Shown here piece by piece: positions 4,841 to 49,661 of a stretch of 64,000 bases of DNA. Below the pieces are notes generated by a model. That model ran no database searches, was not told the DNA's origin, and worked only from the letters and a program-made list of their open reading frames with translations. The position numbers were made by a program, and so were the translations under genes. Within the stretch, counting starts at the first letter, position 1; each line of letters starts with the position of its first letter. The stretch lies in NCBI RefSeq assembly GCF_055900595.2, contig NZ_CM148325.1, one strand, 5' to 3'.

Positions 4841-5248
4841 TTACCCCGCCCGATGATGACAGCAGCCAGAGAGATTTTCGATAATCGGGCAGTCGGCGCT
4901 GTCATCGCCAGGGCAGGCATTCGCCAGCGCCAGTAGCTGGTCGCGCATGGATTGCAGCTCCTCAATGTGTCGTTCGATCTCCGCCACTTTCTCCAGGGTG
5001 CGCCGTTTTACATCGGCGCTGTGACGCTGCGGGTCGTTAAACAGATTCACCAGTTCGCCGCTCTCTTCCAGGTTAAAGCCCACCTGGCGCGCCTGGCGCA
5101 GTAAGGTCAGTTCGTTGAGATGCTGCTGCGTGTAGGTTCGATAACCATTTTCGCTGCGCATCGGCGGCGTCACCAGCCCCTTTTCTTCATAGAAGCGAAT
5201 GGCTTTGCTGGTCAGGCCGGTAATTTTTGCTACATCGCTAATGTTCAT
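4841..5248 (-). CDS. cueR: MerR-family copper-responsive regulator CueR
   Basis: 135-aa translation [26 protein letters not shown]...[24 protein letters not shown] recognised as E. coli CueR. Confidence 0.95.
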
Positions 5249-20500: not shown

Positions 20501-23500
20501 TGTTGCCTGCCGCATCGGTAATGGCCGCAGTGATGGTTTGCGGGCCGCTGCCCAGCGCAGTGACGTCTGCTGCCGGAACGCCGACGCTCCAGTTGCCGGA
20601 GGCGTCCAGCGTGGTGGTATAAGTTTTACTGTTTAACGTGATGGTGATGACATCGCCCGCTTCGCCGCCAGTGCTGGAACCGGAGATCACCAGCGCCTGT
20701 CCGTGTTCGGCGGCGTTAATGATGTCATCGCCGGAGACGGTGTTAATGGTTAAAACTGGCACGGTGAGATCCACCGCCAGGCCGTGAGTGGCGGTCGCCG
20801 GGTTACCCGCTTTGTCGCTTACCGAGGCGCTGACCGTGTACGGGCTGGCGGTCAGATTGCTGAGATCCGCCGTCGGCACGCTGACGCTCCAGCTACCGCC
20901 CGCCTGAACGGTGCCGATGTAAGCCACACCATTAAGCGTGACGGTTACCGTTTGCCCCGCTTCGGCGGTGCTGGTGCCGCTGATGGTTAACGGATTGCCC
21001 GCCTCAGCGGCGTTAAGAATATCGTCTGTGGCAATAGTGTTAATGGCAAGCGTCGGTGCCGTGGCGTCGACGCTGTAGGCGTGGGTTGCCGAAGCCGTGT
21101 TGCCGTTAATATTGCTGACACTGGCCTGTACCGTGGCGTCGCCGTCACGTAACGCGCTGAGATCGGCGGTGGGTAGAGTAGTTGTCCAGCTACCATCGCC
21201 CGCTACGGTAGCAATATAGGTTTTGCCGCCAAAGGTGACGGTGACGGTTTGCCCCGCTTCCACGCCGGAAGTGCTGCCGGAAAGGGTTAACTCTGCCCCT
21301 TTTTCAGCGGCATTAATCACATCGTCGCCGGAAACGGTGTTAATGGAGATCGCCACCGCCGCCAGATCGACGGTGACCGGATGGGTGATGGTGGAGGTTG
21401 TTCCGGCAGTGTTAGTGCCGCTTACCGTGATATCCACCGTCCCCGCAGGCCAGTTGCCCACGTCTGCCGCCGGAACGCCAACGCTCCATGTGCCATCGGC
21501 TAATACTGTCGCAGCGTAAGTGACCGTGTTAATCACCACTGTCAGCGCCGCGCCCGCCGCCAGCCCGCTGCTGCTACCGGTTATCACCAGTGCCTGAGCG
21601 TGCTCGATGCTGTTGACCACATCATCGCCCGCCACGGTATCGACGCGCAGACCCGGCAGGTTGGCGTCTATCACAATATCGCGCGAACCGCTGCCAGTAT
21701 TACCCACGCCGTTGGTTACCGAGGCATTAACTGTCAGTTCGCCATTACCGATAGCCTGAATATCCGCCGCCGGAACGTCCACGCTCCAGCTAAAATTGCC
21801 CTGCACGGTAGCGGTGTAGGTTTTCCCGCCAATCGCCACGGTAACCGTATCGCCCGCCGCCGCACCCGTCACCTGGCCGCTGATGGTCTGCGCCACGCCC
21901 GATTCCGCCGCGTTAATAATATCGTCGGTCGCCACCGGATTAATGGTGACACCCGGCAGCGCGGTATTCACCTGCACGTTATGGCTGGCGGAATTGCTGT
22001 TGCCCGCGCTGTCGGTGACGTTCGCCGTCACCGTGTAACTGGCGTCGCCCAGCGCACCGACGGCAGAGGCTGGCACCGTGGTGCTCCAGTTGCCTGCGGC
22101 GTCCGTCGTGGCGGAGTAATTTTGCCCGTTAAGCGTCACCGTAATTGTGGTGCCTGTTGGCTGATTACTGGTGCCGGAAATTTGCAGATCCGCGCCTTTT
22201 TCCGTGGCATTAATCACGTCATCGCTGGCAATGGGGTTGATGCCAATGGTCGGCGCGGTAAGGTTAACGGTGACCGTGTGCGTCTCGTTGTCGCTGTTGC
22301 CAGCCACATCGGTAACGGTCGCCGTCACGGTTTGCGGGCCGCTGCCCAGCGCAGAGACATCCGCAGCCGGAACGCCGACGCTCCAGTTTCCGGAGGCGTC
22401 CAGCGTGGTAGTGTAGGTTTTATTGTTTAGCGTGACGCTGACGATATCGCCCGCCTCCCCGCCAGTGCTGGAACCGGAAATCACCAGCGCCTGCCCGTGT
22501 TCGGCGGCGTTAATAATATCATCGCCCGCAATGGTGTTAATGGTCAGTACCGGAACGGTGAGATCCACCGCCAGATTATGCGTGGTGCTCGCCGGGTTGC
22601 CCGCTTTGTCATTGACCGTCGCCGTCAGGGTATGGCTGCCATCGGTCAATGCCTCAAGATCTGCCGCCGGAATAGTAATACTCCAGCTGCCGTCCGCCTG
22701 CACTGTTGCCTGATAGGTCTGCACGGTCGGGCTGTTAAGCGTTACCGTAACAATCTGCCCCGCTTCAGCGGTGGTGCTGCCGCTCACCGTCACGCCCGCA
22801 TCGGCTTCGCTGGCGTTGACGATATTGTCGCTGGCGACGGTATTGATAATGATGGTTGGCGCGCTGCTATCGACGCTGTAGTTATGCACCGCCGAGGCGC
22901 TATTGCCATTGATATTGCTGACGCTGGCCTGCGCGGAGGCGCTGCCCTCAGGTAATGCTGCCAGATCGGCGGCAGGAACGGTGGCAGTCCAGCTACCATC
23001 GCTCGCCACGCTGGCGGTGTAATTTTTCCCGCCAAAGTTGACGGTGACGGTTTGTCCTGGCTCTACATTAGTGGTGGTGCCGGAAAGAGTTAAATCAGCG
23101 CCTTTTTCTGCGGCGTTAATCACGTCGTCCGTGGCGATGGTGTTGATTGTGATCGCCGCCGGAGTGAGATCCACCGTTACCGGATGCGTAATGCTCACCG
23201 GATTTCCGGCGCTACTTTCCCCGGATACAGCAATAGACACTGTTCCCGCAGGCCAGGCGCTAACCTGCGCCGCCGTGACGCCCACGCTCCAGCTACCATC
23301 GACCTGCACCGCAGTGGTGTATTCCACATTATTAATCGTAACTGTAAGCGGGGTGCCTTCTGCCAGCCCCGAGCTGCTGCCGGTGACCACCAGCGCCTGC
23401 CCGTGTTCGATGATATTGACCACATCATCGCCCGCTACCGTATCGACCCGCAGACCGGGCAGATTGGCGTCGATGGTGATATCCCGCGTGCCGCTGCCGG

Positions 23501-26500
23501 TGTTGCCGTTTTGATTGGTGACCGAGGCGCTCACCGTTAAATCACCATTACCCAGCGCCTGAATATCCGCCGCCGGAACGCTCACGCTCCAGCTTAAACC
23601 GGCCTGCACGGTGGTGCTGTAAGTATTACCGCCCAGCGTAACGGTTACCGTGTCGCCAACGGCGGCTCCAGTCACCTGCCCGCTGATGGTTTGCGCAGCC
23701 CCCGCTTCGGCGGCGTTAATAATATCGTCGGTTGCCACCGGGTTAATAGTCACGCCGGGCAGCGCGCTGTCGACCAGCACGTTATGGCTGGCGGTGGCGC
23801 TGTTGCCGATATCGCTGGTCACCGCCGCCGTTACCGTATAGTTGGCCTGGCCCAGTGCGGTTACCGCCGATGCCGGAACGGTGACGCTCCAGTTACCGGA
23901 GGCGTCGGTCGTGGTGGTGTAATTTTGCCCGTTCAGCGTCACTGTGATGGCGGTATTAACAGGCTGATCGCTGGTGCCGGTAATTTGAACATCGGCCCCT
24001 TTTTCGCTGGCGTTAATCACATCATCGCCCGCAATGGTGTTAATGCCAATCACCGGCGCGGCGGTATCAACCGTGACGGTCAGTGACTGGCTACCCGTAT
24101 TTCCGGCGCGATCAGTCACTGAAACGTTGATCGGATAACTGCCGTCCACCAGTCCGCTGACAACGGAGGCCGGAACGCCCAGACTCCAGTTGCCGGAAGC
24201 ATCCACCACCGTGGTGTAATCCACATCATTCAGCGTAACGGTGACAATATCGCCCGCCTGCGCGCCGGTGACCGTGCCGCTGATGATTTGCGCCTGGGTA
24301 TGTTCCGGCGTGTTAATGACGTTATCGGTTGCCACCGGATTAATGGTCACCACCGGCGGCGTGGCATCGACCAGCGCCACCCGTGAGACGCTGGTCGGAT
24401 TACCCGCGACATCGTTCACGCTCGCGGTCACCGTGGCGTTGCCGTCAGCCAGTGCGCCAACGTTGGCGGCGGGAACGGTCACGCTCCAGGAGCCAACTGA
24501 CTGCACGACGCCCTGATAGGTCTGCCCATTAAGCGTGACGGTCACCGTCTGCCCCGGCTGAGCGTCGGTGGTGCCAGTGATTTGCAGATCCTGACCACTT
24601 TCGGCGGCGTTAATGATGTTATCAGCCGTCAGCGAGTCGATGCTTAAAGCCGGAGCCAGGCTGTCGACGGTAATGGTGCGGGAGGTGTCGCCTGTGTTAC
24701 CGCTGATATTAGTAACGGTCGCAGTGATTTCCGTCGCACCGTCTGCCTGGCTACTCACCGCGCTGGCGGGAACGGTCAGGCTCCAGCCGCCACCTGCCTG
24801 AACGGTAGTGGTAAAGGTCTGCCCGGCGAATTTCACTACTACGGTTTGCCCGGTTTCCACCAGCTGCGTGGTACCGGTCAGCGTCAATGGCGCGCCTTTT
24901 TCTGCGGCATTGATAATGTCATCGCCGGAGACGGTATTGATGGTAATAAGCACCGCGCCCGGATTAACCTCCACGTTGCGATCGATAGTAACCGGGTTCC
25001 CGGCGGGGTCCGTTGCGCTGGCATTAACCACTATCGTACCCGGCGTCAGTGCCTGTAGATCTGCCGCAGGCACGCCTACCTGCCAGTTGCCGTTGCTGTC
25101 GGTCACCCCCTGGTAGGTGTTGCCGCCGAGCAAAACAGTGACCACTCTTCCGGCGGACAAATTAGTACTGCTACCGGTGATAATCAGGTTTTGCTGCTGC
25201 TCAACGGCATTGATCACATCATCGCCCGCGATGGTGTCAATGCGCAGCCCCGGCAGCCCGGCGCTGATGGTGATATCAAGCGCACTGCTACCCGTATTGC
25301 CATGTACGGTAGTAACCGAAGCATTAATGGTTAACGCACCATCGCCCAGCGCCTGTAAATCTGCCGCCGGAACGTTCACGCTCCAGGTGAGATTGCTGCC
25401 CACCGTCGCCGTGTAAGTATTGCCGCCCAGTTCAATAGTGACCGTATCGCCCTGCGCGGCGCCCACGACGACGCCACTCAGGGTTTGATCTGCTCCCGCT
25501 TCGGCGTTGTTGACAATGTTGTCGCCCGCAAAGGTGTTGATGATCACCTGCGGCAGCACCGTATCGACCAGCAAATTGCTCTGCGCGGTGCCAGTGTTGC
25601 CGGTCACATCGGTGGCGCTGGCAGTGACGGTGTAATTGGTGTTCGCAAGATTAACAACATCACTCACCGGAACGCTCAGCGACCAGACGCCGCCGCTGAC
25701 CTGAGCGCTATACGTGACATTATTCAACGTCACGCTAACTGTACCGCCATCGGGCAAATTGCTGGTGCCGCTTAACGTTAGCGGCTGCTGAGACTCCAAC
25801 GCATTCAGTACGTTATCTCCGCTGATAGCATCTATCGCGACTTGCGGCGCGACGCCCGCCAGGGTGATGTTATGAGTCGCTGTACCGGTATTTCCGGCGG
25901 CATCGGTCACCGTGACGATAATATCGTTAGGGCCACGCGCTAGAGTGCGAGTTACCGCCGGATCAAGCGCCACATTCCAGCTACCGTCTGCCTGCACCAC
26001 GCCGGACAGAACTGTGGCGCCTAACTTGACGGTGACCGTGTCGCCAGGGGAAGCCCCACTGACCCGCCCGGAAATAATCTGCGCCACAATCTGTTCGGCG
26101 GTATTAAGAATATCGTCACCCGCAACGGTGTTAACGCTGACCACTGGCGCACCGGTGTCTACTGTGAAATTTACGCTGTTGCTGGTGGTGTTTCCTGCCC
26201 GGTCGCTGACGCTGGCATTTATGGCGTAGTCGCCATCTGCCAGCGCCTGCACTTCTGCGGCAGGCAGCGTCACTTGCCAGGTTCCGTCACTACCGACAGT
26301 TGCTGTGTGGCTTTTCCCGTTAACGGTCAGTGTTACGGTTTGCCCGGCTTCTGCGTTCGAAGTGCCGCTCACTACCAGCGAGGCATTATGTTCTGAGGCG
26401 CTGACAATGTTGTCCTGAGCGATGGTGTTGATTGCAAGTGTTGGCGGCTGGGTATCGACCGTTAGCAGCTGCGCTCCGGTGACCGTATTGCCCGTGGCAT

Positions 26501-27668: not shown

Positions 27669-29024
27669 TTATTTTAAGTCGGGTAAGTCGTTGTATAAGC
27701 CCTGTTTAATTCCCGCTAATGGAATAAGGTTATTCACCGCAGCGGCATAATTTACGGCGGCGACCCAGCCATCATAATTGGCATTTATTTCAGCCGATTG
27801 CGCCTGAAAAACATCTTGCTCGACGGTTAATAGATCATTCAGGCTTCGGTTACCCAATTTATATTCATTTTGATAAACATCCCGCGTTCTGTGCGCACTT
27901 TCGGATTGCGCTAAACCGGCCTCTTCACGTCCCCGTGCCCCAGTCCAGTTGGCATACGCCACCGACGCCCGTTGCATAACATCTAATTTCGCCTGCTCAA
28001 CCTGCGAGGCAGAGATTTTTTGTTGCCCTTCGGCCTGTTGCACCTGGGCTGAAACCGCGCCGCCCTGATACAACGGCGCGTTGACGTTCAGTTGTAACTG
28101 GTCATCCCAGTACGAGCGGTCGCTGGTCTGGTAGCGCGTTTTGCCGCCCTGAATACTGAGCGTCGGCCAGTATTGCGATTTGGTTTTTTCCACACCGTAC
28201 TGAGCAGACTGACGTAAGTTTTCTGCCGCCAGAACCAGCGGTATGGACTGGTAATCAATATTTTTTAGCGACACTGGCTGCTCGGCTAATTCAGCAGGTG
28301 GCGCGGCTATCCTCTCCGGCTGTACACCAGTGAGCACCGCCAGTTGCGCTTTGGCGCTTGCCATTTGCGCCTGGTATTGCTCCAGCGTCGAGCGCATTGC
28401 CGCTATACGCGTCTGTGCCTGTAATTCATCGGATGATGAGTTAAGCCCGGCGTTGGCGCGCAGTGCCGCCATGTTGTAGACATTTTCCAGAGAGTGAATA
28501 TTACGCTGCGCAGCGTCGCACAACGCCTGATATCGGCTCACTTCCATATAGGTCGTCGCCGTTTTTTCGGCTACGTCAGTTAAGGTTGCCATCAGTTTAA
28601 AGCGGTAGCTGTCACGAGCGGCGGTTTGTAGTTTGATATCGTTATCTGTTTTACCGAAGTCATACACCAGCTGCGTCAGGGTTATGCCATAAGAGACGTT
28701 GTTATCCAGCCTGCCGCTGGAGTCCGTTTGCCGGGACGGCCCCGCGTTGCCGGTTAATCCAACGTGTGGATACCAGGCACTTTTGGCTTCATCGATTTGC
28801 GCTTCGCCAATACCTATCTGCGCCGCCTGTTGAGTGACGTCGGGATTTCGCGCAAAGGCGCGTAATATACTTTCCTGTAAAGATAATCGGGCAACTGGCG
28901 TTACCGCTGGGGCGTTCGCCCATTGTGGCAGCGGTGCAGCAATTGTAGCTTCTCCCATCACCATAAAACTTATTAAAAAAATAAGTCCATTATTTTTACG
29001 GTTTTTAAACTGGAATCGCGCCAT
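27669..29024 (-). CDS. TolC-family outer membrane channel of the type I secretion system
   Basis: 451 aa with signal peptide and two repeated coiled-coil/beta halves typical of outer membrane efflux proteins; first gene of the OMP-adhesin-ABC-MFP cluster. Confidence 0.85.
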   Translation of the reverse strand: MARFQFKNRKNNGLIFLISFMVMGEATIAAPLPQWANAPAVTPVARLSLQESILRAFARNPDVTQQAAQIGIGEAQIDEAKSAWYPHVGLTGNAGPSRQTDSSGRLDNNVSYGITLTQLVYDFGKTDNDIKLQTAARDSYRFKLMATLTDVAEKTATTYMEVSRYQALCDAAQRNIHSLENVYNMAALRANAGLNSSSDELQAQTRIAAMRSTLEQYQAQMASAKAQLAVLTGVQPERIAAPPAELAEQPVSLKNIDYQSIPLVLAAENLRQSAQYGVEKTKSQYWPTLSIQGGKTRYQTSDRSYWDDQLQLNVNAPLYQGGAVSAQVQQAEGQQKISASQVEQAKLDVMQRASVAYANWTGARGREEAGLAQSESAHRTRDVYQNEYKLGNRSLNDLLTVEQDVFQAQSAEINANYDGWVAAVNYAAAVNNLIPLAGIKQGLYNDLPDLK

Positions 29025-37782: not shown

Positions 37783-40272
37783 ATGGAGTTCGTCAGAGAC
37801 TGGCAAAAACCGCGCCCCGCTATCGGGCGCGAAGGCTTACCCGTACCTGAAACCGCACTGGATACCATCCTGAAGTGTTACCGCGCAGACGAAGAGCGCG
37901 CACTGCACGCTGAAGAGCAGGGTCATCCGCTTGCGGGCACAACCATCGGTAACGCGATCGACAAGTGGGAAGGCGCACAGGAGCGCCAGGAAGAGGCCAT
38001 CACGCTCACACAGGAAGCGAGAAGACACCCGCCCACCCTTATTGAGGAAACCCTCAAAGAGCTGGACACCCTGCCCAAGTGGTTGAGGCTGCCGCTGATT
38101 AAGCACCTGAACTTTTTAAGGCGCAAACAGGAGGACGAACAACAGAAAGGCAAGCGCGGCAAGGACACCCGCAAATATGAGCGCTTCCTGAAAAACGGCA
38201 TCCCCGCACGTCTTCGCCGTATTCGTGAGATTAACGCTCGCTTTGCACCGTTAAGTTTTCAGGCCGCTGCCATGCGCGAGAGTCTGGAAGAACTGATCAC
38301 ACTGCCGAACCTGAGCCGTGAACGCATCCAGAAAATAGCCGTACTGCTTGCCAGCGCCGTTAAAATGCATCTTGCCGACGCAATGGACAAGGCCCGCGAA
38401 ATAACAGGGAACGACAAAGACGACAACCTGAACAACTGGCTGATTGCCTACCAGTATATTGGTCGCCGTGTCCTGAAGCTGGGGATCACCCCACCATACT
38501 GGAGCGCCCTTGAACTCCGCCCCGACCGCAGAAGCCCCCCGGACGTGACACTGGTTCCGGGCGCTGTTTTGCGCCTGAACGACGCCGAATGGTGGAATAA
38601 AAAACTTCGCCAGATGCACGACGTCTGGCGTGAGGAACTTTTACGTGCAGCGGGCCTTGTATCCCGCCAGACCTCCGTTTATGTGAGCCGTGAAGCGCTG
38701 GCAGACTTCCGCGAAAAACAGGCCCGTACCCGCGATTTTCTCAAAGCGCACGACGTGGAGAACGAAGACGGCGAACGCATCAGTCTGGAAGATATCTACT
38801 ACGCCAGTACATCCAACCCGCATAACCGCCGCAACGAGATGATGGCGTGCGTTAAGGGAATGGAGCTTATCGCACAGGAACGCGGCGACGTGGCCTTCTT
38901 CGTCACGGTCACAGCCCCGTCTCGTTTTCACAGCGTCACCGACGCAGGCACGCTGAACCCGAAATACAAAGGCGCAACCGTAAAGGACGCCAGCGACTAT
39001 CTGGTTTATAACTTCTTCGCCTCCGCCCGCAAACTCATCAAAAAAGAGAAGCGGGGCTGGTACGGCATTCGCACCGTGGAGCCTCACCACGACGGCACGC
39101 CCCACTGGCACATGCTGGTATTCACAAGCCCTGAGAACGAAGAGCGCATCACGGAAATCATGTGCAATGCCGCCATTCGCGAAGACCGGGCAGAGCTGGG
39201 CGACGACATCACCCCGCGCTTCAAGTGCGAGAAGATAGATCCCGAAAAAGGCACGCCAACCAGCTACATCGCCACCTACATAGGCAAAGGCATTGACGCC
39301 GCTGCATTCGGCGACACGGATCCAAAAACAGGTAAACCGCCCGTTGACCACGAAAGCGGAAAACCTATGGCGGACACCGTGGAAAACGCCGTCGCCTGGG
39401 CGCGCCTGCATCGCATTCGCCAGTTCCAGTTCTTTGGCCTCCCTTCCCGTCAGGTGTGGCGTGAGTTCCGCCGCCTTGCCGGACAAATGGCACGCAACCC
39501 GAAGGGGCCGCAGGCACTGACCAACCCCAAAGCCGACGCCCTCCTTGTTGCAGCCGATACGGGGTGTTTTGCCAGCTACATCATGCATCAGGGCGGTGTG
39601 CTCATTCCCCGTAGTGAATATCTGGCCCGCACAGCCTACGTCACCGCAGAAGAGCCGAACAATTACAGCGAATTCCCCGAGCGCATTTACGGTATCCGCA
39701 TGCCGGAACTGGGGGAGGACTTCACGTTATGCACCCACCCGGAAGAGTGGAAAATCGTCAGAAAGGAACCGGAACCAGACAACCGCACGGGCGAGGGTTT
39801 TGACCTTCAGGGCGGCCCCGCCGCCCCTTGGACTCGTGGCAATAACTGTCACCCTGACGAAAAAACAACCAACAACAGCACACAAACAGAACAGTCAGAG
39901 TGGGCAAAACTGCCCCCCTTACCCCCATCGTCGGACGGTTTTGTGAGCTGGTTTAAGTCGCTTAAGAGGCCGGACAGGAAAAAACTACAAAGATTGCTCA
40001 AAAAACGCACCGAAGAGAGTCGCCAGAACGCCAGCGGCGGCACCGACACACCCACCGACACCATTAACCTGGGCGTTGTGCTGCCGGAACTGCCGGAAAT
40101 CGTGCAAGTCCGCCGCGATCTGGAAGCGCTGGGCGCGGACTTCCCCGAAGCAATGGCCCATTCCGTCTTTATGGGTGCCCGCGTTCGTCTGGGTGACGGT
40201 CGCACCGTTCACCGCGACGAGCAGACCGGGCGCATCACCGTCACCAGTCTGCAACCGGAGGCGAAACCATGA
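37783..40272 (+). CDS. A: P2 gpA-type rolling-circle replication initiator
   Basis: 829 aa; position after the early genes and length fit the P2/186 A protein; HxH-type motif region (HWHMLVF). Confidence 0.85.
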   Translation: MEFVRDWQKPRPAIGREGLPVPETALDTILKCYRADEERALHAEEQGHPLAGTTIGNAIDKWEGAQERQEEAITLTQEARRHPPTLIEETLKELDTLPKWLRLPLIKHLNFLRRKQEDEQQKGKRGKDTRKYERFLKNGIPARLRRIREINARFAPLSFQAAAMRESLEELITLPNLSRERIQKIAVLLASAVKMHLADAMDKAREITGNDKDDNLNNWLIAYQYIGRRVLKLGITPPYWSALELRPDRRSPPDVTLVPGAVLRLNDAEWWNKKLRQMHDVWREELLRAAGLVSRQTSVYVSREALADFREKQARTRDFLKAHDVENEDGERISLEDIYYASTSNPHNRRNEMMACVKGMELIAQERGDVAFFVTVTAPSRFHSVTDAGTLNPKYKGATVKDASDYLVYNFFASARKLIKKEKRGWYGIRTVEPHHDGTPHWHMLVFTSPENEERITEIMCNAAIREDRAELGDDITPRFKCEKIDPEKGTPTSYIATYIGKGIDAAAFGDTDPKTGKPPVDHESGKPMADTVENAVAWARLHRIRQFQFFGLPSRQVWREFRRLAGQMARNPKGPQALTNPKADALLVAADTGCFASYIMHQGGVLIPRSEYLARTAYVTAEEPNNYSEFPERIYGIRMPELGEDFTLCTHPEEWKIVRKEPEPDNRTGEGFDLQGGPAAPWTRGNNCHPDEKTTNNSTQTEQSEWAKLPPLPPSSDGFVSWFKSLKRPDRKKLQRLLKKRTEESRQNASGGTDTPTDTINLGVVLPELPEIVQVRRDLEALGADFPEAMAHSVFMGARVRLGDGRTVHRDEQTGRITVTSLQPEAKP

Positions 40273-40679
40273 ACCGTTATCATTGTGTACTGCCGCGCCA
40301 CTACTTCGGTCAGATTATGCGCTCGCGTATTCCGGCGGTCACGCTGCGAAACCTGAGCACGGTACCGCAGCCGGGCGATGAGCTGGAAATCGCCGTAGCA
40401 GGCCCTGACCGTTCAGCCAGCTGCGTGACCGCCGACGTGCTGAACGCCGTGCCCGTAGGTGGTGACTGGCTGGTTGCCATCCGCTTCCGCCAAGACCCGT
40501 TCGCACCTGAACCGCTCACCCCCGCAGGCCGCATCATGCAGAACTGGCGGGATGAACGCGCGAAGGCGAACTGCGAAAAACTGATTAACAGGATTGCCAC
40601 GACAAACCGACATGCCGCGCTGGCGCGCCGGATATACCCCGCAAAATCAACACAACCAACAGGAGTAAAAGGCCCATGA
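40269..40679 (+). CDS. hypothetical 136-aa protein translationally coupled to A (position of P2 orf91)
   Basis: ATGA overlap with A stop. Confidence 0.5.
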   Translation: MNRYHCVLPRHYFGQIMRSRIPAVTLRNLSTVPQPGDELEIAVAGPDRSASCVTADVLNAVPVGGDWLVAIRFRQDPFAPEPLTPAGRIMQNWRDERAKANCEKLINRIATTNRHAALARRIYPAKSTQPTGVKGP

Positions 40680-40822
40680 AAAGAATCGCCGGAACTGACT
40701 ACCAGGAGCTGCTTAAAGCGGTGGAAAACTACCGTTCAGCGCTGGTGTGGTGTGAGATTAAGCCCTGTGACCCGGGAGCAGTTAAGGATTGCAACCGGCG
40801 CGTGAGGACATTCAGCGCGTAA
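40676..40822 (+). CDS. hypothetical 48-aa Cys-containing peptide, coupled to upstream ORF
   Basis: hand translation MKRIAGTDYQELLKAVENYRSALVWCEIKPCDPGAVKDCNRRVRTFSA; ATGA overlap. Confidence 0.3.
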   Translation: MKRIAGTDYQELLKAVENYRSALVWCEIKPCDPGAVKDCNRRVRTFSA

Positions 40823-40937
40823 TTGGCTACCGCTATGTAGCAGCCATTATTGACCTTGTGAATGAACTGGAGGAAGCAAAAGAGCGCATCGCAGAACTGG
40901 AAACCCAGAATAACCCCAACCAGCAGGAGCAGAAGCC

Positions 40938-41519
40938 ATGAAAAAAAGAGACCTTAAAAAACACCTCCGTAGTCAGATTGAATATTTTGAAGATAAGGCT
41001 GCAAAAACAGGGCTTTCCGGTAAAGAGAACATGAACTTCAGGGCACACCTCCTGACGTGGAGAATACTTAATATCACGAGAGATGGACTTGAGCCGCTAG
41101 CCTACCTGATGGAAGATGGCGAGACCCTCATACAGGATCCCAATGTGGAAATGGAGAAGAAAGAGATGGACCTGCCGATAATCGGGCTGTTTGAGATCCC
41201 TGAACTAATAGGACGTTATGAACACGAAAACCGCCAGCTTGCCGCCTTTTTATCCGTGACAATCGAACGACTGGAAACCGTGAAACACGATATTCCGTTC
41301 GGTTTTGATGAGCGCACCGAGGGTGATTTGCTCAGCTTTCAGATTGCCCTGAACGTGCTCACCGCAGAGCCTTCTGCGTGGCTACGCCCGGAACGGCACC
41401 ACAACACGTTCGCATTTACCGTAATTCCCTACGATGCCGCACAGGAAGAGGATAACTTCGAGACCAGGCTTGTTCCCCTGTATCAGATTGCGGATTTCTA
41501 TACGTTGATTCGCTGGTAA
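40938..41519 (+). CDS. hypothetical 193-aa acidic protein (prophage cargo)
   Basis: ORF followed by a strong intrinsic terminator; no recognisable family. Confidence 0.55.
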   Translation: MKKRDLKKHLRSQIEYFEDKAAKTGLSGKENMNFRAHLLTWRILNITRDGLEPLAYLMEDGETLIQDPNVEMEKKEMDLPIIGLFEIPELIGRYEHENRQLAAFLSVTIERLETVKHDIPFGFDERTEGDLLSFQIALNVLTAEPSAWLRPERHHNTFAFTVIPYDAAQEEDNFETRLVPLYQIADFYTLIRW

Positions 41520-41534
41520 TCCCCCACAGTAAAA

Positions 41535-41557
41535 CAGCCCGACCGGGCTGTTTTTTT
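41535..41557 (+). terminator. rho-independent terminator
   Basis: cagcccgaccgggctg hairpin followed by T7. Confidence 0.6.
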
Positions 41558-41614
41558 ATCTGATATTTTTGATAACGTTGACCGGCTCATTAGCAAAAAA
41601 GCAAAGAGGAAAAC

Positions 41615-42001
41615 ATGAAAGCCCGTATCGGGATCATCCCGGAAAAAGCCCTGCGCCAGCACCTGATTGATATTGCCAGAGGGAAGCGAAAACCACAGCC
41701 CGACGAGCCAAAGGTATGGTTTTCATCCATCAATGCGGCAGGCCAGACGCTGAGCAATGAAAATATCGCCCTTCTGCGTCTTATGAATGAGGAGAAGCCG
41801 CAGACCATGACCGCACTTGCGGAGTTATCCGGCAGAAAACTGAGCAACCTGTCTGTAACCCTGAAAATGCTGAGCAGCTACGGTTTTGTCAGTCTGGAAA
41901 AGAAAGGGAATACTGTACACCCGAAAGCACTTTTTACCGATTTTGAAATCATCGTTGATCCGTCCGTGGGTTCAGTACATCGCGCCACCGCCCGGCCCTG
42001 A
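41615..42001 (+). CDS. standalone winged-helix DNA-binding protein (128 aa)
   Basis: C-terminal half TMTALAELSGRKLSNLSVTLKMLSSYGFVSLEKKG has wHTH character; RBS agaggaaaacATG; flanked by terminators on both sides. Confidence 0.5.
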   Translation: MKARIGIIPEKALRQHLIDIARGKRKPQPDEPKVWFSSINAAGQTLSNENIALLRLMNEEKPQTMTALAELSGRKLSNLSVTLKMLSSYGFVSLEKKGNTVHPKALFTDFEIIVDPSVGSVHRATARP

Positions 42002-42012
42002 AGTGCGCAATA

Positions 42013-42040
42013 AACAGCCCCGTTCGGGGCTGTTATTTAT
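42013..42040. terminator. bidirectional terminator between convergent genes
   Basis: cagccccgttcggggctg hairpin with T-rich flank. Confidence 0.55.
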
Positions 42041-42411
42041 TCCAGAATCAGCTGTTCAGGTGTGCAGCCGTACAGTCTGGCAAGGCGCTCAATATTTGCC
42101 CTGCGCGGGCGTTCTGTTCTTTCGAATTCGGACACGGTAGCCTGCCTGATACCCAGCGCATCCGCCACCTGCTTTTGCGTCATTCCGCGATAGATTCGCC
42201 ACGCCGCCTGCATGGTGCAGCCACGTTCCGAGAGGATGTTGACCACCTCGTTGGGATACAGCGTATCAGGCGATGCACTCGGTTCGTTCTGGACGTCCTC
42301 GTAGAGTTCGTCAAGGTCGCTGTCTCCTGCCAGTTTTTCAAACAACGCCACTGGCAGAATGACGGATACCCTGTTACCCGCACCGTCAGTAATAAACTGA
42401 ATCTGACTCAT
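42037..42411 (-). CDS. XRE-family HTH antitoxin (HigA-like)
   Basis: C-terminal MTQKQVADALGIRQATVSEFERTERPRRANIERLARLYGCTPEQL is a Cro/C1-type HTH; adjacent to RelE/ParE toxin gene. Confidence 0.7.
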   Translation of the reverse strand: MSQIQFITDGAGNRVSVILPVALFEKLAGDSDLDELYEDVQNEPSASPDTLYPNEVVNILSERGCTMQAAWRIYRGMTQKQVADALGIRQATVSEFERTERPRRANIERLARLYGCTPEQLILE

Positions 42412-42484
42412 TTGCCCCTCCTGCTAAACATCGGTTTATTTTTTAATTTGCTGCCGGTGATAAAAAACGGCGGGTCGCCCCGCC

Positions 42485-42757
42485 TTAGTATGTTGTCGAG
42501 GTTCTCCGCTGAATACGGAGGATCCTGATAACCACTATCTGCCCTCCCTCAATCGTGAACCTGACACGGTAATGATTTACCCTGAGTCTGTACTCCCCGC
42601 CCGAGTCAGTGAGCTTTTTAATATCCAGATTCTGGAACTTCGGATAGCCATAAAGCGCGTTAACTTTCTCGCGTAAGGATTTCTGATCCCTCGCTGGCAA
42701 AACCCGTAAATCTTTGATTGCCCGAGGGGTCCACATGATTTCAGTCGTCATAAACAC
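42485..42757 (-). CDS. RelE/ParE-family type II toxin
   Basis: ~90 aa with the ...EYRLRVNHYRVRFTIEGGQIVVIRILRIQRR core typical of RelE/ParE toxins. Confidence 0.7.
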   Translation of the reverse strand: MFMTTEIMWTPRAIKDLRVLPARDQKSLREKVNALYGYPKFQNLDIKKLTDSGGEYRLRVNHYRVRFTIEGGQIVVIRILRIQRRTSTTY

Positions 42758-43340
42758 ACCGGAAGCAAATTATTAAAGAGCCGTGCCCGCTGGCACACCT
42801 TAAATATAGGTTTTAACCCCTATATTGTCAAACAAAATCCCTATATCATGAAGTAAAAAAGCACCTCCCGCGACCTCCCTTTCCGGTGCACGAAAGTGCA
42901 CAAATTTGCACAATTTTTTTGAACGACTTTTTGCCCTTCCGGCCCGTGTGGCGTCTGGATCCGTCGGGGATCCGTGCGTGCACGAAAAAAGGCCTTTTTC
43001 TGCGCGCAGGTGACGGGGGAACAGCCCGCGTTTCAGGGGGTAAATAGCATTCCCTGAACGATGTTGCAGTGACACAACAGAATGGCTGTATTTCTCACGC
43101 TGAGCGTGAAAAAGACGTAAGGGCTTTTGATTTGATGGGGTGAAAGATAAGGCCGTCAAAATCGCACTGAGGCAGCGAGAATATGTCGTCAGAGTTGCGG
43201 GGTTGCGTAAGCATCCGCCCGGCGATGATGGCTACAGGGCTGGAGATGTTGTGAAATTATCTGAAGGAATAACCAGCTTGCAGGAGAACCCGGGCAAAGT
43301 CAGAATAGCGGCAGGCATCAACTCAAAAGAGGATAATGTC

Positions 43341-43844
43341 ATGAGCCACTTTAATGATTTATGCCAGATCAATCGTGAAGCTGAAGAAAAACGCGCTGAG
43401 GCAGCTCAAATTTTGCGGGATGAAGCGGCAAGGCTGATTGATTTCTATGAAGAATGGCTGGGGCTTCCATCCATGTACTGGGAAGACGATGATGGCGACC
43501 TGCACCGCTACGTGGAGACAGGCTTGCCATGTAAGACAGCGGCGGATTTTAGTCCTCTTTCAGTCCACAATATCGCATCTGCACCAGACAATATTTTCCG
43601 CATGGCCGTACGAACCTGGGTTAAGTCATCTGACAGCAGCTACCCGGTAAGCGTGGTTATTGCACTTGAATTATATTCAGTAGATGCGGAACGGGTGTCT
43701 CTGAGAGTCCGGGTGGAAGACGATATTTCTGTTCGCGTATTTATCAATAAACCCAGCGAAGAAGCCTGGGGCGATGTTGTTATGCACATGAAAAAGCACA
43801 TCGCTAATCACCTGAAAAAGCGAGCGCCATCAGCACTTCGTTAA
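43341..43844 (+). CDS. hypothetical 167-aa protein (prophage cargo); alternative GTG start at 43140
   Basis: ATG at 43341 with aaagagga RBS; followed by bidirectional terminator before Q. Confidence 0.5.
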   Translation: MSHFNDLCQINREAEEKRAEAAQILRDEAARLIDFYEEWLGLPSMYWEDDDGDLHRYVETGLPCKTAADFSPLSVHNIASAPDNIFRMAVRTWVKSSDSSYPVSVVIALELYSVDAERVSLRVRVEDDISVRVFINKPSEEAWGDVVMHMKKHIANHLKKRAPSALR

Positions 43845-43859
43845 GCAGAGCTGGAGAGT

Positions 43860-43884
43860 CGGGGCATAAATTTTTTATGCCCCG
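43860..43884. terminator. bidirectional terminator between the cargo gene and Q
   Basis: cggggcat-aaatttttt-atgccccg hairpin. Confidence 0.5.
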
Positions 43885-43910
43885 GCGAAGCAGCAGACAA
43901 GCGAAGCGCG

Positions 43911-44966
43911 TCAGGATATGGGCCGGGTGTCTAACAGTGCGTAAGGGTTAAAACGGATCACCTCTTCGCCCAGCCAGTCGTTGACGTGTTTCATTGCTTC
44001 CATGACGGGCATCAGTTCGTTAATGGCAAACACACGGGCTGCCTTCTCCACATCCCCGAATGACCCCTTCTCACCCGGCATGGCCCCCATCAGCTGAGGT
44101 GGCACGCGGTGCACAGCCAGCACGTCATCACGCGATGCGGCCTTGACGTTCATGAACTCATCCTTTGCGGTGATTTGCTGAAACGGCAAAATCTGTACGC
44201 CATCCTTACCACCTCCCGCCGCGTGGATGAGCAGATTTTTAAACGCCCCGCCACCACGCGCGCTTTGCAGTGTTTCCCGCAGTTTTTCCATGCTTTCACG
44301 GTCAACCTGCGCCGCACCGATGTAGACAATACAGCCCGCGTGTGAGCCGTTATCGTAGTAGAGCTTGCGGAAGATATCGGCGGAATGTGACAGGCTGGCA
44401 GACAGCAGGCCGCCCAGGTAATCCGGCATCCCGTAAATCTCCTGGTTGATATCAGGATTCATCAGGTGGCATATCGTCCCCTCACGAAAGCGGTACTCTT
44501 CCTGTCCTTCCTGTATATACCACCATGATTTCATATCGCTGCCACGTCGCATGTATTTCGCCAGCGCCCGGCGCAGGGCCAGCGGTTCGCCAAGCATGTT
44601 GCGCCGCAGCTCAAGACAGGCATTACCGAACACAAACCAGTCCATCGCCACCCCGGCGAACTCCTGGCGGGACAGCAGAGGATGTGGAATATAGCAGCCC
44701 AGCAGCACATTACGTTTGAAGCTGAGCGCCGACTGGTGCCAGGACGTCTGGCGGGCAGCCCGTGCCAGTCCGTACCAGTCAACGGGCGTTTCAAACCACC
44801 GCCCGTTGTCGGCGCAGTACATGCTGTCCAGCAGGTCGGCCCCTGACAGCCGGTAAGGTCCTTCAAACGTGAAGGCACTCAGTGTCGGGTCGCTTCGCAG
44901 GGAATCCGCAAGGCTGCCCTGCGCTGCGCGGGCGTTCGTACGTCGTTGTTTATTTTTTCTGCTCAT
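43911..44966 (-). CDS. Q: portal protein (P2 gpQ-like)
   Basis: 351 aa; position downstream of terminase P in the leftward P-Q operon. Confidence 0.85.
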   Translation of the reverse strand: MSRKNKQRRTNARAAQGSLADSLRSDPTLSAFTFEGPYRLSGADLLDSMYCADNGRWFETPVDWYGLARAARQTSWHQSALSFKRNVLLGCYIPHPLLSRQEFAGVAMDWFVFGNACLELRRNMLGEPLALRRALAKYMRRGSDMKSWWYIQEGQEEYRFREGTICHLMNPDINQEIYGMPDYLGGLLSASLSHSADIFRKLYYDNGSHAGCIVYIGAAQVDRESMEKLRETLQSARGGGAFKNLLIHAAGGGKDGVQILPFQQITAKDEFMNVKAASRDDVLAVHRVPPQLMGAMPGEKGSFGDVEKAARVFAINELMPVMEAMKHVNDWLGEEVIRFNPYALLDTRPIS

Positions 44967-46717
44967 CAGAACTCCGTAACACTGAAGGGGGCGGCATCAT
45001 GTTCACCGCCGACAGGTTCGTTGATAACGGCCAGCATGGTGGCCCATGCAAGATCGCCATGGCTTACGCCTCTTGCGCGATCTGTTTCGTAGGTGATAAA
45101 TCCGGCCTGCGTTTTTGTTTTGCGTACCGCGTTAAAGGCGCTCACCAGTTCGCGCTCGCTGCGGTCGTACTCCCACCGCCCGGCGCGCATGAGCTGCAGC
45201 ATCTTCAGAACCAGCGTGCGCTTTGATGACAGGGTGAAGGTGTAGGGAATGGCTGCCGGAAAAAAGCGCTTCACAATCTGATACACCGCATCCCCGTGAC
45301 CGCCGGTTACGTCAATACCGATATGCTCAACGTTATAGCGAAAGGTGAACTCTTCAATCACCTTCGCCTGCGCCTCAAACTCCAGCCCCTGCACCCGCCG
45401 CGTCTCCACGGTGCGAAAACGCCCGCCCGGTACGGCTGGCGGCACCACCACGACAACCGCCCCGCTGTCACCGTTCCCGCTACTGCCGTTGGCGTCGTAC
45501 CCAATCCACACAGGGCGGTTCCCCATCGGACGCGGTGCAAACGGCTTCCAGTCCGGCCACTCGTCGTATCCGTCAACACCGCAGCCAATCAGGATATTCA
45601 GGTTAAATGCCGATTCCCCTTCGCGAGCAAATTCACACATGTAGAGATTGCGGAACTCGTCTTCAGTGTTATTGCGCCGGATTTTGTCAATGTTGGTTAA
45701 CGTCCATCCCTGACTGACCACATCTTCCAGCGTCACAATTTGCCGCCAGATATAGTCAGGACAGATAAGGCCGTTATGAAGCGCATTCCAGCTCACATCA
45801 AAATGCTGACGTTTATGAGTACGAAGCCCTTCATTCCAGTGATCGCCGTTCCAGTATGCATACGCCTCATGTGTTTCACTTGATGGCGTGGAAAAATAGG
45901 TACACCGCAAACCATCCAGCGTTGCCATAGCAGCAGCCACCTTGCGCAGCTCTGCGAAACGCCCCGTCCAGAAAAACTCATCAAAATACAGATTCCCTGT
46001 GTACGCTTGCGCGGTGGCCGCAGAAGTGCCGAGAAAATGCAGCTCTGCACCGTTGGAGAGGATGACTTTATCGCCCCCTTTCAGTTCCACATCAACTTCA
46101 GATGCAGCCTTCTGAATAATGCTTTTAAACTGGAGCGCCTGACGACGAGACGCAGACAAAAAAATCTGGTTACGCTGGTAAGGTTGTGCCACATCGTCAC
46201 GCAGCGCCATCAGCAGCGCTTCCTGCGCAAAATACCAGGTCGCCCCAATCTGGCGGGATTTCAGGATCATCCTGTCAGTAATTCCGGCACGCTCACAGGC
46301 ACCGATAGCATCAAGCCATTTGCGCTGGTGTCCGGCCAGCCTGTCGGTAATTTTTTCCCGCAGCGCCGCGATCTGTTCCGGCGTGAAATGATTTTTGTGT
46401 TTTTTCGCCCGGCCTTTCTTTCCTGTTGCCGTCTCATCCGGCAGACCGTCATGCAGCTTTTTAAGCTGACGGGTCAGCAAATCAATTTCCTTAAAGTCCC
46501 CGCCTGTTTTATTCTGTTTTTCCGTGAGCTGAATGAGTCGCGCATCCATGGACTGCGTGACACGCTGAACCGGGGGCGTCTCATCCCACTGGTCGCGTTT
46601 TTTCCACGAATGGATCGTGTTCTGGTTGATACCCATAAGGCGGGAAATTTCCGCAACAGGGTAACCCTGCCAGTACAGCTGGCGTGCCCGCTGGCGAACA
46701 AATGTATCCTGAATCAT
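44966..46717 (-). CDS. P: terminase large (ATPase) subunit (P2 gpP-like)
   Basis: 583 aa; N-terminal HTH-like segment, ATPase and nuclease regions. Confidence 0.9.
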   Translation of the reverse strand: MIQDTFVRQRARQLYWQGYPVAEISRLMGINQNTIHSWKKRDQWDETPPVQRVTQSMDARLIQLTEKQNKTGGDFKEIDLLTRQLKKLHDGLPDETATGKKGRAKKHKNHFTPEQIAALREKITDRLAGHQRKWLDAIGACERAGITDRMILKSRQIGATWYFAQEALLMALRDDVAQPYQRNQIFLSASRRQALQFKSIIQKAASEVDVELKGGDKVILSNGAELHFLGTSAATAQAYTGNLYFDEFFWTGRFAELRKVAAAMATLDGLRCTYFSTPSSETHEAYAYWNGDHWNEGLRTHKRQHFDVSWNALHNGLICPDYIWRQIVTLEDVVSQGWTLTNIDKIRRNNTEDEFRNLYMCEFAREGESAFNLNILIGCGVDGYDEWPDWKPFAPRPMGNRPVWIGYDANGSSGNGDSGAVVVVVPPAVPGGRFRTVETRRVQGLEFEAQAKVIEEFTFRYNVEHIGIDVTGGHGDAVYQIVKRFFPAAIPYTFTLSSKRTLVLKMLQLMRAGRWEYDRSERELVSAFNAVRKTKTQAGFITYETDRARGVSHGDLAWATMLAVINEPVGGEHDAAPFSVTEF

Positions 46718-48878: not shown

Positions 48879-49661
48879 ATGCTGACACCGGCACAGGCTC
48901 ATTTCCAGCGCGTGATGGCTTTACGGGCAGGAACGGCAGCAGAAAACGAGGATATCGTGGCCCGCACGGCTCATGAGCAGGTCCTTCACCGTCTGCGCCT
49001 GGCACAGCAACGCATAAAGGGCGTCCAGGCAAAAGCGGCAAAGGCCGCGCTCAAGCGTGAAATGCTGCCGGGTTTTGCAGGCTGGATAGACGGCACGCTG
49101 GAAGCCGACGGCGGACAGCAGGATGAGGTGATAGCCACACTCATGGTGTGGGCCGTGGACTGTGGCGACCTGGCGCTTGCACTGCGCATCGGGGATTATG
49201 TGGTTCGCCACAACCTCACGATGCCTGACAACTTCGGGCGTACGGCAGCCACGGTACTGACCGAGGAAATCTGCAACCCTGTTCTGACACAGGCCGGAAC
49301 GGATGCACACGCCGATTTGTCCGGCTACATCGAACCGCTGGACACCCTCTGGCAAATTGTCGCGAACCGGGACATGCCCGATGAGGTCCGCGCCAAGCTG
49401 TGCAAGGCATGCGCCTTTGCCCGTCGTGGCCTGACCGATGCCGACAGCATGGCGGTGAGTCTGAAGCTGTTCCGTGAGGCAATGCACCTTAACCCGAATG
49501 CGGGGGTAAAACGTGAGATTGCCACGCTTTCACGGGCCCTGAAAAAGGCCGGACAGGATGAAGCCGCTGCCGCACAGGAGCCTGCGGCACAGAAAGATAC
49601 AACCAGAGAACAGACCACGACGCCGAAGGCGAAAGCGAAAGCGAAGGCGAAACGTGGTTAA
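48879..49661 (+). CDS. M: terminase small/endonuclease subunit (P2 gpM-like)
   Basis: 260 aa; position and P2-like order. Confidence 0.85.
   Translation: MLTPAQAHFQRVMALRAGTAAENEDIVARTAHEQVLHRLRLAQQRIKGVQAKAAKAALKREMLPGFAGWIDGTLEADGGQQDEVIATLMVWAVDCGDLALALRIGDYVVRHNLTMPDNFGRTAATVLTEEICNPVLTQAGTDAHADLSGYIEPLDTLWQIVANRDMPDEVRAKLCKACAFARRGLTDADSMAVSLKLFREAMHLNPNAGVKREIATLSRALKKAGQDEAAAAQEPAAQKDTTREQTTTPKAKAKAKAKRG

Follow-up and report, generated by a model that had tools for sequence, protein, structure and literature searches.

A probable packaging site between a toxin gene and orf167

We analyzed a 583-bp interval (positions 42758-43340) of a 64,000-nucleotide stretch of DNA (NCBI RefSeq assembly GCF_055900595.2, contig NZ_CM148325.1), here called the window, which carries a P2-type prophage. 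The interval is the gap between the start of a toxin open reading frame (ORF; 42757) and the ATG of a second gene, orf167 (43341). From its position, its conservation, its architecture, and its homology to mapped cos sites, we determined with a probability of about 80% that the segment 42887-43030 is the core cos (packaging) site of a P88-like prophage (Xuanwuvirus, P2 family). The interval as a whole is a mosaic of four parts, namely a toxin-antitoxin (TA) promoter, the cos core, a lineage-specific block, and the orf167 leader. An earlier note on this DNA had described it as one long transcriptional control region; this was not borne out, since the array of TGCAC repeats at its center was found to be independent of the neighboring genes and to be retained in P4-like satellites. 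The features of the core are given below by window position.

42886-42891, plus strand: site 1, GTGCAC (TGCAC starting at 42887)
42896-42901, plus strand: site 2, GTGCAC (TGCAC starting at 42897)
42906-42911, plus strand: site 3, TTGCAC (TGCAC starting at 42907)
42912-42978: spacer of fixed length and variable sequence, leading from site 3 to site 4 (72 bp start to start)
42957-42962 and 42968-42973: pair of GGATCC palindromes, 11 bp apart
42979-42983, plus strand: site 4, TGCAC, followed by an A-run and in the place where the 55-bp cos core of P2/P4 opens
42985-42999: A6-GGCC-T5 palindrome, between site 4 and the predicted cut region
43009-43027, plus strand: predicted cohesive-end segment GGTGACGGGGGAACAGCCC, about 18-19 nt, with GGTGAC at 43009

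It was noted that sites 1-3 share the same orientation and a 10-bp phasing, and that a conserved A/T tract, AATTTTTTTGA, follows them up to 42923. A single copy of the triplet TGCAC-N5-TGCAC-N5-TGCAC was found in the 64-kb window, where 100 shuffles gave an expectation of 0.00, and GGATCC-N5-GGATCC was likewise found once against 0.00 expected from shuffles. The single TGCAC motif was rarer than expected over the whole window on both strands (112 copies against 216 +/- 16 in dinucleotide-preserving shuffles). The motifs listed in the earlier note were all present where it had placed them and were far beyond chance in these tests, with one correction: the palindrome given there as A6-GGCC-T6 exists, but its run has five T rather than six. 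Its list did not include the fourth TGCAC (42979-42983), which lies 72 bp beyond site 3, start to start. Across relatives, the conserved unit at each site was TGCACAA and the base preceding it was free, so the GTGCAC palindromes at sites 1 and 2 appear incidental.

Conservation and location of the core

A 391-bp query (42880-43270) was 100% identical to a region of E. coli LH50-c, and its closest named phages were P88-like (Xuanwuvirus, Peduoviridae). Homology with all P88-like phages and with approximately 1100 of 5426 complete E. coli genomes was found to start exactly at site 1 (42887) and to end at 43264, with variable cargo on either side. Of this stretch, Novemvirus phiT5282H and other E. 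coli P2-like prophages have kept the segment 42887-43030 alone, in each case adjacent to the portal gene. This core was 91% identical to that of P88, compared to 78% for the portal DNA and 81% for the large-terminase DNA. The genes beside the array differed from element to element, being old in P2, psu in P4, the TA pair in the window, and other cargo elsewhere.

The cos site of the P2 family is located between the cargo on the side of the replication gene gpA and the 3' end of the portal gene, with cargo hotspots on both sides (PMC9122126, PMC5694545). The stretch from gpA to cos is a defense hotspot in P2-like phages (PMC9122126), and PMC5694545, citing Dodd & Egan 1996 and Nakayama 1999, describes a cargo slot from cos to the portal gene. 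We found the core in this same location: the accessory genes that follow replication gene A lie to one side of it and the 3' end of gene Q, the portal gene, to the other, and the genome encodes terminase of the gpM/gpP type. The gpM, gpP, and portal genes were all encoded by the prophage (Pfam; RefSeq names), and the layout of gpA-side cargo, conserved block, and portal 3' end was the same in the window and in all relatives examined, including P88 and phiT5282H. Of the two known hotspots flanking cos, one holds the TA pair and the other orf167. The prophage genes that frame the interval are as follows.

Near 31.9-32.9 kb: integrase gene
37783-40272: gpA-like replication gene
43911-44966, minus strand: portal gene
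44966-46717, minus strand: large terminase gene (gpP type), followed by the scaffold and capsid genes and then by the gpM small terminase gene
48879-49661, plus strand: gpM-type small terminase gene (Pfam Phage_term_smal PF05944, E = 4.4e-37)

A four-site architecture shared with P2, 186, and P4

In P2, 186, and P4, whose 19-nt cohesive ends are annotated and experimentally known, TGCAT was found at -123/-124, -111, -101, and -29 relative to where that end begins, and the TGCAC sites of the window and phiT5282H were spaced by 10, 10, and 72. An ungapped comparison of P2 with P4 showed two islands of identity, one at -113 to -97 (sites 2 and 3) and one of 55 bp at -29 to +26, and the spacer between them was of equal length and unrelated sequence. 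The second island has the length of the 55-bp cos core that, together with the 19-nt 5' cohesive ends, is attributed to Ziermann & Calendar 1990 in PMC5694545 and PMC9594776. Longer flanks around the 55-bp P4 cos raised P2/P4 cosmid transduction more than 1000-fold (PMC9594776), in keeping with a function of DNA beyond that core. With the four-site architecture defined here from P2, 186, and P4, the window was found to possess all four sites and, 30 nt after site 4 and so within the 29-31 nt of that architecture, its predicted end. As the TGCAC array is fixed in its distance to the cohesive end and is kept in satellites, we assign it to the packaging site rather than to control of the toxin or of orf167.

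The palindromes within the core followed another pattern. The two GGATCC copies were kept within Xuanwuvirus and not in other lineages. At the position of the A6-GGCC-T5 palindrome, other Xuanwuviruses carried A7-CGCGC-T5 or A7-CGCG-T6 and other genera lacked the palindrome, with P2 carrying the dyad CCGCCCCGTGAAGCGGGCGG there. Because the A-run and T-run were kept and the center varied among Xuanwuviruses, the center of the palindrome appears to be free. Judged from these alignments, the GGATCC pair and A6-GGCC-T5 read as lineage-specific fillers of cos segments whose length is conserved. The conservation of the repeats in related elements, a check proposed in the earlier note, therefore held strongly for the TGCAC array but not for the GGATCC pair and the palindrome.

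On another reading, the toxin operon or orf167 is controlled through these repeats: a neighboring helix-turn-helix (HTH) protein, whether the antitoxin or the HVO_A0114-family protein (41615-42001), would bind cooperatively to the TGCAC array, the GGATCC pair, and the palindrome, which would serve as its operators. In favor of this, genes for HTH proteins lie in the neighborhood, the phasing puts the sites on one helix face, and a cargo promoter can abut the array, as the old-tin transcript of P2 starts about 30-40 bp from TGCAT sites 1 and 2. However, the array was conserved regardless of its neighbors, and the TA pair, the HVO_A0114 gene, and orf167 were absent from most of its carriers. Its distance to the cohesive end is also fixed, and P4-like satellites have kept it beside psu. 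Homology begins exactly at site 1, so the TA promoter (42803-42831) is left outside the conserved block; the four sites all run in the same direction, and their palindromic flanks are not conserved. We consider an operator array very unlikely on these grounds. Of the cooperative binding of a regulator that had been suggested, the phased, same-orientation, and conserved sites stand, but their likely binder is a packaging enzyme and not a transcription regulator.

In P2, with the old-tin start at 33424/33426 (1425-1427 of record L005) and TGCAT sites 1 and 2 at 33452 and 33464, the promoter of this cargo adjoins or overlaps the array. Terminase binding and cargo transcription could interfere with each other there.

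The array across the P2 family and its satellites

We surveyed 80 IMG/VR contigs encoding portal relatives (48-99% identity), using a strict regular-expression search with wide spacing ranges (65-80 allowed between sites 3 and 4). The strict pattern was found in 36 of these contigs, always beside the portal gene and always with spacings of 10 or 13, 10, and 72, and most of the remaining contigs were one base off in site 1 or site 2. Site 4, with a cos-like GGYGA..GGGG 29-31 nt further on, was present in 74/80. Of 68 unique cos regions, 59 had an exact TGCAY at -72 from site 4, 52 had one at -82, and 32 had one at -92, and no exact matches were found at other offsets.

As a sample of satellites we took 80 loci that encode proteins related to P4 Psu. 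Of these, 72 had the strict pattern (13, 10, 72, 29), one of them with a 78-bp spacer in place of 72, and seven of the remaining eight loci were single-base variants. The homology of the satellites ended just after GCGCGC. The cos site is the only recognized homology between P4-like satellites and P2-like helpers (PMC9122126). Since this homology is that of the packaging signal only and the triplet is kept in satellites, the triplet is taken as part of the packaging signal.

The motif itself was found to vary by lineage. An Edwardsiella tarda prophage (L178 2097-2240) carries TGCAA, TGAAC, TGAAC and, 72 bp on, another TGAAC, which gives spacings of 10/10/72, and GGTGACGGGGG follows 31 nt after the last TGAAC. 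The Pseudomonas phage phiCTX carries YGCAG at -110, -100, and -29 from its mapped end. A motif that changes together at several sites per lineage is what would be expected of co-evolution with a phage-encoded DNA-binding protein. We tentatively propose, at slightly less than even odds, that the phased TGCAY array with its 72-bp spacer is the missing cosB equivalent of the whole P2 family, a loading platform for gpM outside the 55-bp core, and that its classes (TGCAT, TGCAC, TGAAC, and YGCAG) co-evolve with gpM and set packaging-specificity groups. If this were true, the groups would decide which helpers package which satellites and cosmids, and the prophage in the window would belong to a TGCAC/GGTGAC group that has no cross-packaging with P2, 186, or P4.

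Predicted cohesive end and points against the assignment

The cut is predicted to fall in GGTGACGGGGGAACAGCCC, which would form a 5' overhang by analogy with P2 and 186. This segment begins 30 nt after site 4, compared to 29 in P2, 186, and P4. It was unchanged in every prophage-derived Xuanwuvirus-type copy retrieved, and GCGCAGGTGACGGGGGAACAGCCC was common to Xuanwuvirus-type copies and Novemvirus phiT5282H. Relatives such as L047, L064, and L082 bridge the two types of end, as they combine TGCAC sites with the P2-like GGCGAGGCGGGGGAGCA at the same offset. Kinship in sequence to the end and core of P2, 186, and P4 was found in this way; the direct similarity is weak, and it is therefore the intermediates and the architecture that carry the case for kinship. 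In the records of two isolated phages, P88_4B11 (L002 ~80-100) and Chuche (L009 ~2640-2650), there are deletions of 5-7 nt within the predicted end (equivalent to window 43017-43030), which may reflect assembly trouble at cohesive ends and are circumstantial.

Several observations weigh against the cos assignment. Only 13 of 19 positions of GGTGACGGGGGAACAGCCC agree with the P2 end, GGCGAGGCGGGGAAAGCAC, and the alignment requires a 1-nt gap. The linear P88_4B11 record begins at the equivalent of 42932, 77 nt to the left of the predicted end; as a physical end this start was rejected, since it has no terminal repeat, and it was taken as arbitrary or assembly-derived. An alternative register pairs CTGCGCGC, located before the predicted end, with the TGCGCGC after the P2 end and would make the AT-rich palindrome the cohesive end. 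That register was rejected because the segment is not conserved in other genera and GCGCAGGTGACGGGGGAACAGCCC is shared with phiT5282H. No physical ends mapped for any P88-like phage were found in the accessible sources. No TGCAC-type satellite was encountered among the 80 Psu loci, which were all of the TGCAT type, and none was sought beyond those 80. By comparison, the sharing of cos with satellites is thus shown for the TGCAT type only. The IHF consensus (WATCAANNNNTTR, at most one mismatch) was absent from 42887-43030, and a lambda-style bend is not evident. The binder of TGCAC may be the large terminase or a host protein rather than gpM, and the cos model does not account for 43031-43264.

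One further candidate for the end was examined. The pattern GGCG...CGGGGA...GCAC (42950-42983) could be read as an expanded P2-like cohesive end, and was rejected as the four-site register puts it inside the 72-bp spacer.

Proposed packaging mechanism

After induction, terminase would recognize cos on replicated phage DNA. The four TGCAC(AA) sites in the same orientation would serve as the recognition module, with sites 1-3 on one helix face, and the small terminase gpM, as an oligomer, would most likely occupy all four cooperatively. The length-conserved 72-bp spacer (~7 helical turns) would bring site 4 to the array by looping or wrapping, a step proposed by analogy with lambda cosB. The large terminase would thereby be placed ~30 bp (~3 turns) past site 4, and staggered nicks in GGTGACGGGGGAACAGCCC (~43009-43027) would produce cohesive ends of ~19 nt. 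By the same analogy with lambda, gpM is the most likely binder of the TGCAC sites.

The binder might instead be the large terminase, a host nucleoid protein, or another phage protein, and the sites might then function in protection of the cos ends, in circularization after injection, or in recombination at the hotspots. Such a possibility is helped by the hotspots that flank cos, recombination at cohesive ends having been proposed (PMC9122126). The phiCTX record, furthermore, annotates an IHF site and repeats near cos. Against this, the concerted switch of the motif between TGCAT, TGCAC, TGAAC, and YGCAG favors a co-evolving phage-encoded partner over a conserved host protein, and satellites, which depend on the terminase of their helper, keep the motif type of that helper. 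With the lack of an IHF consensus in the core also counting against it, we regard a binder other than the small terminase as unlikely.

Sites 2 and 3 can also be drawn as a hairpin (GTGCA-CAAATT-TGCAC), which with the T7 run after it would form an intrinsic terminator shielding cos from rightward cargo transcription. A pattern scan listed 42896-42911 with AATTTTTTTG on the plus strand as terminator-like, and the T-run was conserved in TGCAC-type phages. However, the stem has only 5 bp, the same architecture occurs without the T-run in P2, 186, and P4, and the adjacent genes are on the minus strand, so that there is nothing obvious to terminate. Site 1, site 4, and the fixed 72-bp spacing would be left unexplained, and we judge a terminator function of these sites highly improbable.

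A centromere of the ParR/parC type was considered as well, P88 having parM/parR just upstream, and was rejected because the repeats occur in genomes without parMR. A ParM gene was found next to the array in P88 and its relatives, and none was found there in the window, P2, 186, or P4.

The lineage-specific block and the orf167 cassette

The features to the right of the core are listed below.

43031-43264: conserved non-coding block, present in the P88-like lineage only, with hairpin-forming stretches at 43033-43059 and 43091-43112
43265-43340, plus strand: orf167 leader, with the Shine-Dalgarno sequence GAGGA at 43329-43333, 7 nt before ATG 43341
43341-43844, plus strand: orf167, cargo in the cos-to-portal slot, no Pfam match; right border of the interval
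43860-43884: bidirectional terminator hairpin CGGGGCATAA-ATTTT-TTATGCCCCG, shared by orf167 and the portal operon, which end there on opposite strands

The block 43031-43264 was 85-90% conserved with fixed borders in the P88-like lineage. In prophages with a near-identical core, unrelated sequence was found in its place, so the packaging core appears able to do without it. The earlier note had suggested that a small RNA (sRNA) or a peptide gene could be hidden in the interval, and our examination did not support this. The candidates are a 42-codon ORF remnant from GTG 43140, the one small ORF found to recur, which is annotated as gp22 in P88 and which here, its stop codon lost, continues in frame into orf167, and an sRNA that would arise from 43031-43264 and end at the shared terminator.

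An expressed small gene of either kind would be in keeping with block borders that are identical in ~1100 E. coli genomes, with an ORF that is intact in most relatives, with a terminator that directly follows the block in phages without orf167, and with the several hairpins into which this region folds. However, the variable columns of the 42-codon ORF were distributed evenly over the codon positions (15/17/17, no bias), and the ORF was frameshifted in 2 of ~24 relatives. PGAP usually annotates nothing in 43031-43264 (~1100/5426 E. coli genomes), and a pattern scan of the block found no promoter-like site on the plus strand. An Rfam scan of 41500-44500 returned no family at threshold, the only match being gyrA RNA on the terminator hairpin at 22 bits against a gathering score of 45. 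In an RNA consensus fold of 43028-43270, the covariation term was negligible (-0.83 kcal/mol); no more than two pairs scored as compensatory, and both depend on the sequence that has alignment gaps. As the block is also replaced in prophages with a near-identical core, a hidden gene is considered quite unlikely. The block may give rise to a small transcript or may play a role in packaging termination.

In P88-like phages without orf167, homology breaks off at 43264 and picks up again near 43849, immediately ahead of the terminator, which identifies 43265-43848 as an inserted cassette made up of the leader and orf167. The homologues of orf167 in other genera and in other E. coli are all 167 aa, which supports the ATG at 43341 over longer reading frames. 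It was noted that other starts have been called, namely GTG 43251 by PGAP in LH50-c (197 aa) and 43140 by the JGI caller (234 aa); these N-terminal extensions into the cos-proximal block are probably over-calls. The orf167 family comprises only 8 related protein clusters in 5.8 billion proteins, and its members in Edwardsiella (L178/L179 2501-3004), Salmonella (L180 2501-3004), and E. coli occupy the same cos-to-portal slot of P2-like prophages. In the Edwardsiella prophage, the other side of cos holds a TA pair consisting of a Gp49/HigB-like toxin and an HTH protein. In P88, Shae_phiSM, and Chuche, the terminator at 43860-43884 was conserved and followed immediately on the block; its counterparts are P2 tQ and 186 tW, which are annotated at the same relative place.

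The toxin-antitoxin pair and its promoter

The left part of the interval and the genes that it serves have the following features.

42037-42411, minus strand: putative antitoxin with a C-terminal XRE-type HTH (Pfam HTH_3 PF01381, E = 5.4e-11), downstream of the toxin
42485-42757, minus strand: toxin gene, ParE/RelE superfamily (Pfam ParE_toxin PF05016, E = 3.8e-9); left border of the interval
42803-42831, minus strand: sigma-70-type promoter, with -35 TTGACA (42831-42826), a 17-nt spacer, and -10 TATATT (42808-42803)
42803-42810 (AATATAGG) and 42819-42826 (CCTATATT): inverted repeat (8-N8-8) that fills the promoter spacer
42815-42835 and 42836-42856: two copies of a 21-nt direct repeat, holding a further CCCTATAT copy (upstream half-site)

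The pair is a type II TA system, in which a toxin of a known family (RefSeq name 'type II toxin-antitoxin system RelE family toxin') was found adjacent to a putative DNA-binding antitoxin (Pfam). Its promoter matched the consensus at 11/12 positions, was the best promoter-like site in 42300-43950, and is directed toward the toxin start. The repeats near the toxin that had been called operator-like are real, consisting of the inverted repeat and the two 21-nt direct repeats. From its sequence, 42803-42856 appears to be an ordinary TA promoter-operator, and by the usual autoregulation of type II TA systems the antitoxin would bind the operator palindrome. As in other type II promoter-operators, the left 100 bp contain a strong sigma-70 promoter with a palindrome in its spacer. 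The pair differs from type II TA systems in that the toxin gene comes first and a 73-bp gap with a terminator-like hairpin precedes the antitoxin.

This gap runs from the toxin stop (42485) to the antitoxin start (42411). The hairpin, at 42469-42484 on the minus strand, is G+C-rich and has a run of T after it (GGCGGGGCGACCCGCC GTTTTTTATC). A terminator-like signal within a toxin-first TA pair is unusual, and it could uncouple the expression of the two genes.

Other observations in the prophage and its surroundings

The cargo at 40269-42001 was found to differ from that of LH50-c (NZ_CP100500.1; L177 17818-19122), with a shift in offset of 428 bp. In LH50-c, a DUF6516 gene precedes the HVO_A0114-family DNA-binding gene, and in the window a 193-aa ORF without a Pfam match (40938-41519) is found instead. 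This difference fits the fast turnover expected of the gpA-to-cos hotspot. The tail tape-measure gene of the LH50-c prophage is flagged as incomplete by RefSeq (L177 37361-39136, corresponding to about 60.2-62.0 kb of the window). As judged from the LH50-c record, the prophage may thus be defective despite an intact-looking cos. Outside the prophage, we noted an ORF of 6325 aa on the minus strand (8583-27560), with neighbors at 5245-8579 and 27669-29024. In the matching RefSeq record, it is named as the BapA-related adhesin SiiEA, and a TolC-family gene and probable type I secretion genes flank it.

Implications for annotation and packaging compatibility

A P88-type cos site is given here with explicit coordinates, and it was annotated in no phage or E. 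coli record that we examined. The P88/Xuanwuvirus cos was also not described in the literature searched, which did not extend to the primary 1990 paper on the P2/P4 cos. In the accessible papers on P2 and P4 (PMC5694545, PMC9594776), the conserved cos is limited to the 55-bp core. The site triplet and fixed 72-bp spacer upstream of that core were undescribed in the accessible literature and may be under-described more generally; priority is not asserted.

For annotation, a long palindrome-rich gap beside a P2-like portal gene should be read first as a cos site between two hotspots and not as a regulatory region. Our comparison suggests that the functional packaging signal of the P2 family and of P4-like satellites measures ~150 bp and comprises the site triplet, the fixed-length spacer, and the 55-bp core, a length that fits the more than 1000-fold gain from longer cos flanks noted above. 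Lineage-specific motif classes could set the compatibility of helpers with satellites and with cosmids. The TA pair and orf167 stay ordinary in the light of these results.

Comparison with known cos systems

The predicted site is most like the cos of P2, 186, and P4. It shares with them the genomic position, the gpM/gpP gene set, and the cargo hotspots on both sides, as well as three phased sites with a further one at 72 bp and a cut ~29-31 nt past site 4. A G-rich end beginning GG(C/T)GA..GGGG, with GCGCGC nearby, is common to all of them. The differences from these phages are that the window carries TGCAC rather than TGCAT and has a site 1-2 spacing of 10 compared to 12-13. From the P2 end, GGTGACGGGGGAACAGCCC differs at 6/19 positions and by a 1-nt indel. 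The window also has GCGCGC before the predicted end, whereas in P2, 186, and P4 it comes after, and both its spacer and its segment from site 4 to the cut hold lineage-specific palindromes (GGATCC twice and A6GGCCT5); its end is predicted, whereas theirs are annotated.

The cos of lambda consists of cosQ, cosN, and cosB, with the gpNu1 sites R3, R2, and R1 and the IHF site I1, and P2, for its part, packages from circular monomers. The likeness to lambda is one of plan, in that a nicking site has several short phased repeats to one side, which would recruit the small terminase, and a spacer brings distant sites together. Phased conserved repeats were found in the window beside the predicted nicking site; in a lambda-type cosB such repeats are bound by the small terminase, and here gpM is the candidate binder. 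The window nonetheless has no sequence similarity to lambda and a small terminase of another family (Phage_term_smal PF05944), and its sites all run in one direction in a core without the IHF consensus.

The cos of phiCTX (Citexvirus) provides a comparison from Pseudomonas with a mapped end, AGGCGTGGCGGGGGGACGACT. Its three YGCAG copies, with positions counted from GGCG, correspond to sites 2, 3, and 4, and its GenBank record notes repeats R3-R6 and an IHF site around cos. It differs from the window in its motif, in extra copies at -84 and -38, and in a spacing of 71 rather than 72 between sites 3 and 4. The phiCTX IHF site is annotated ~290-320 bp upstream of the end.

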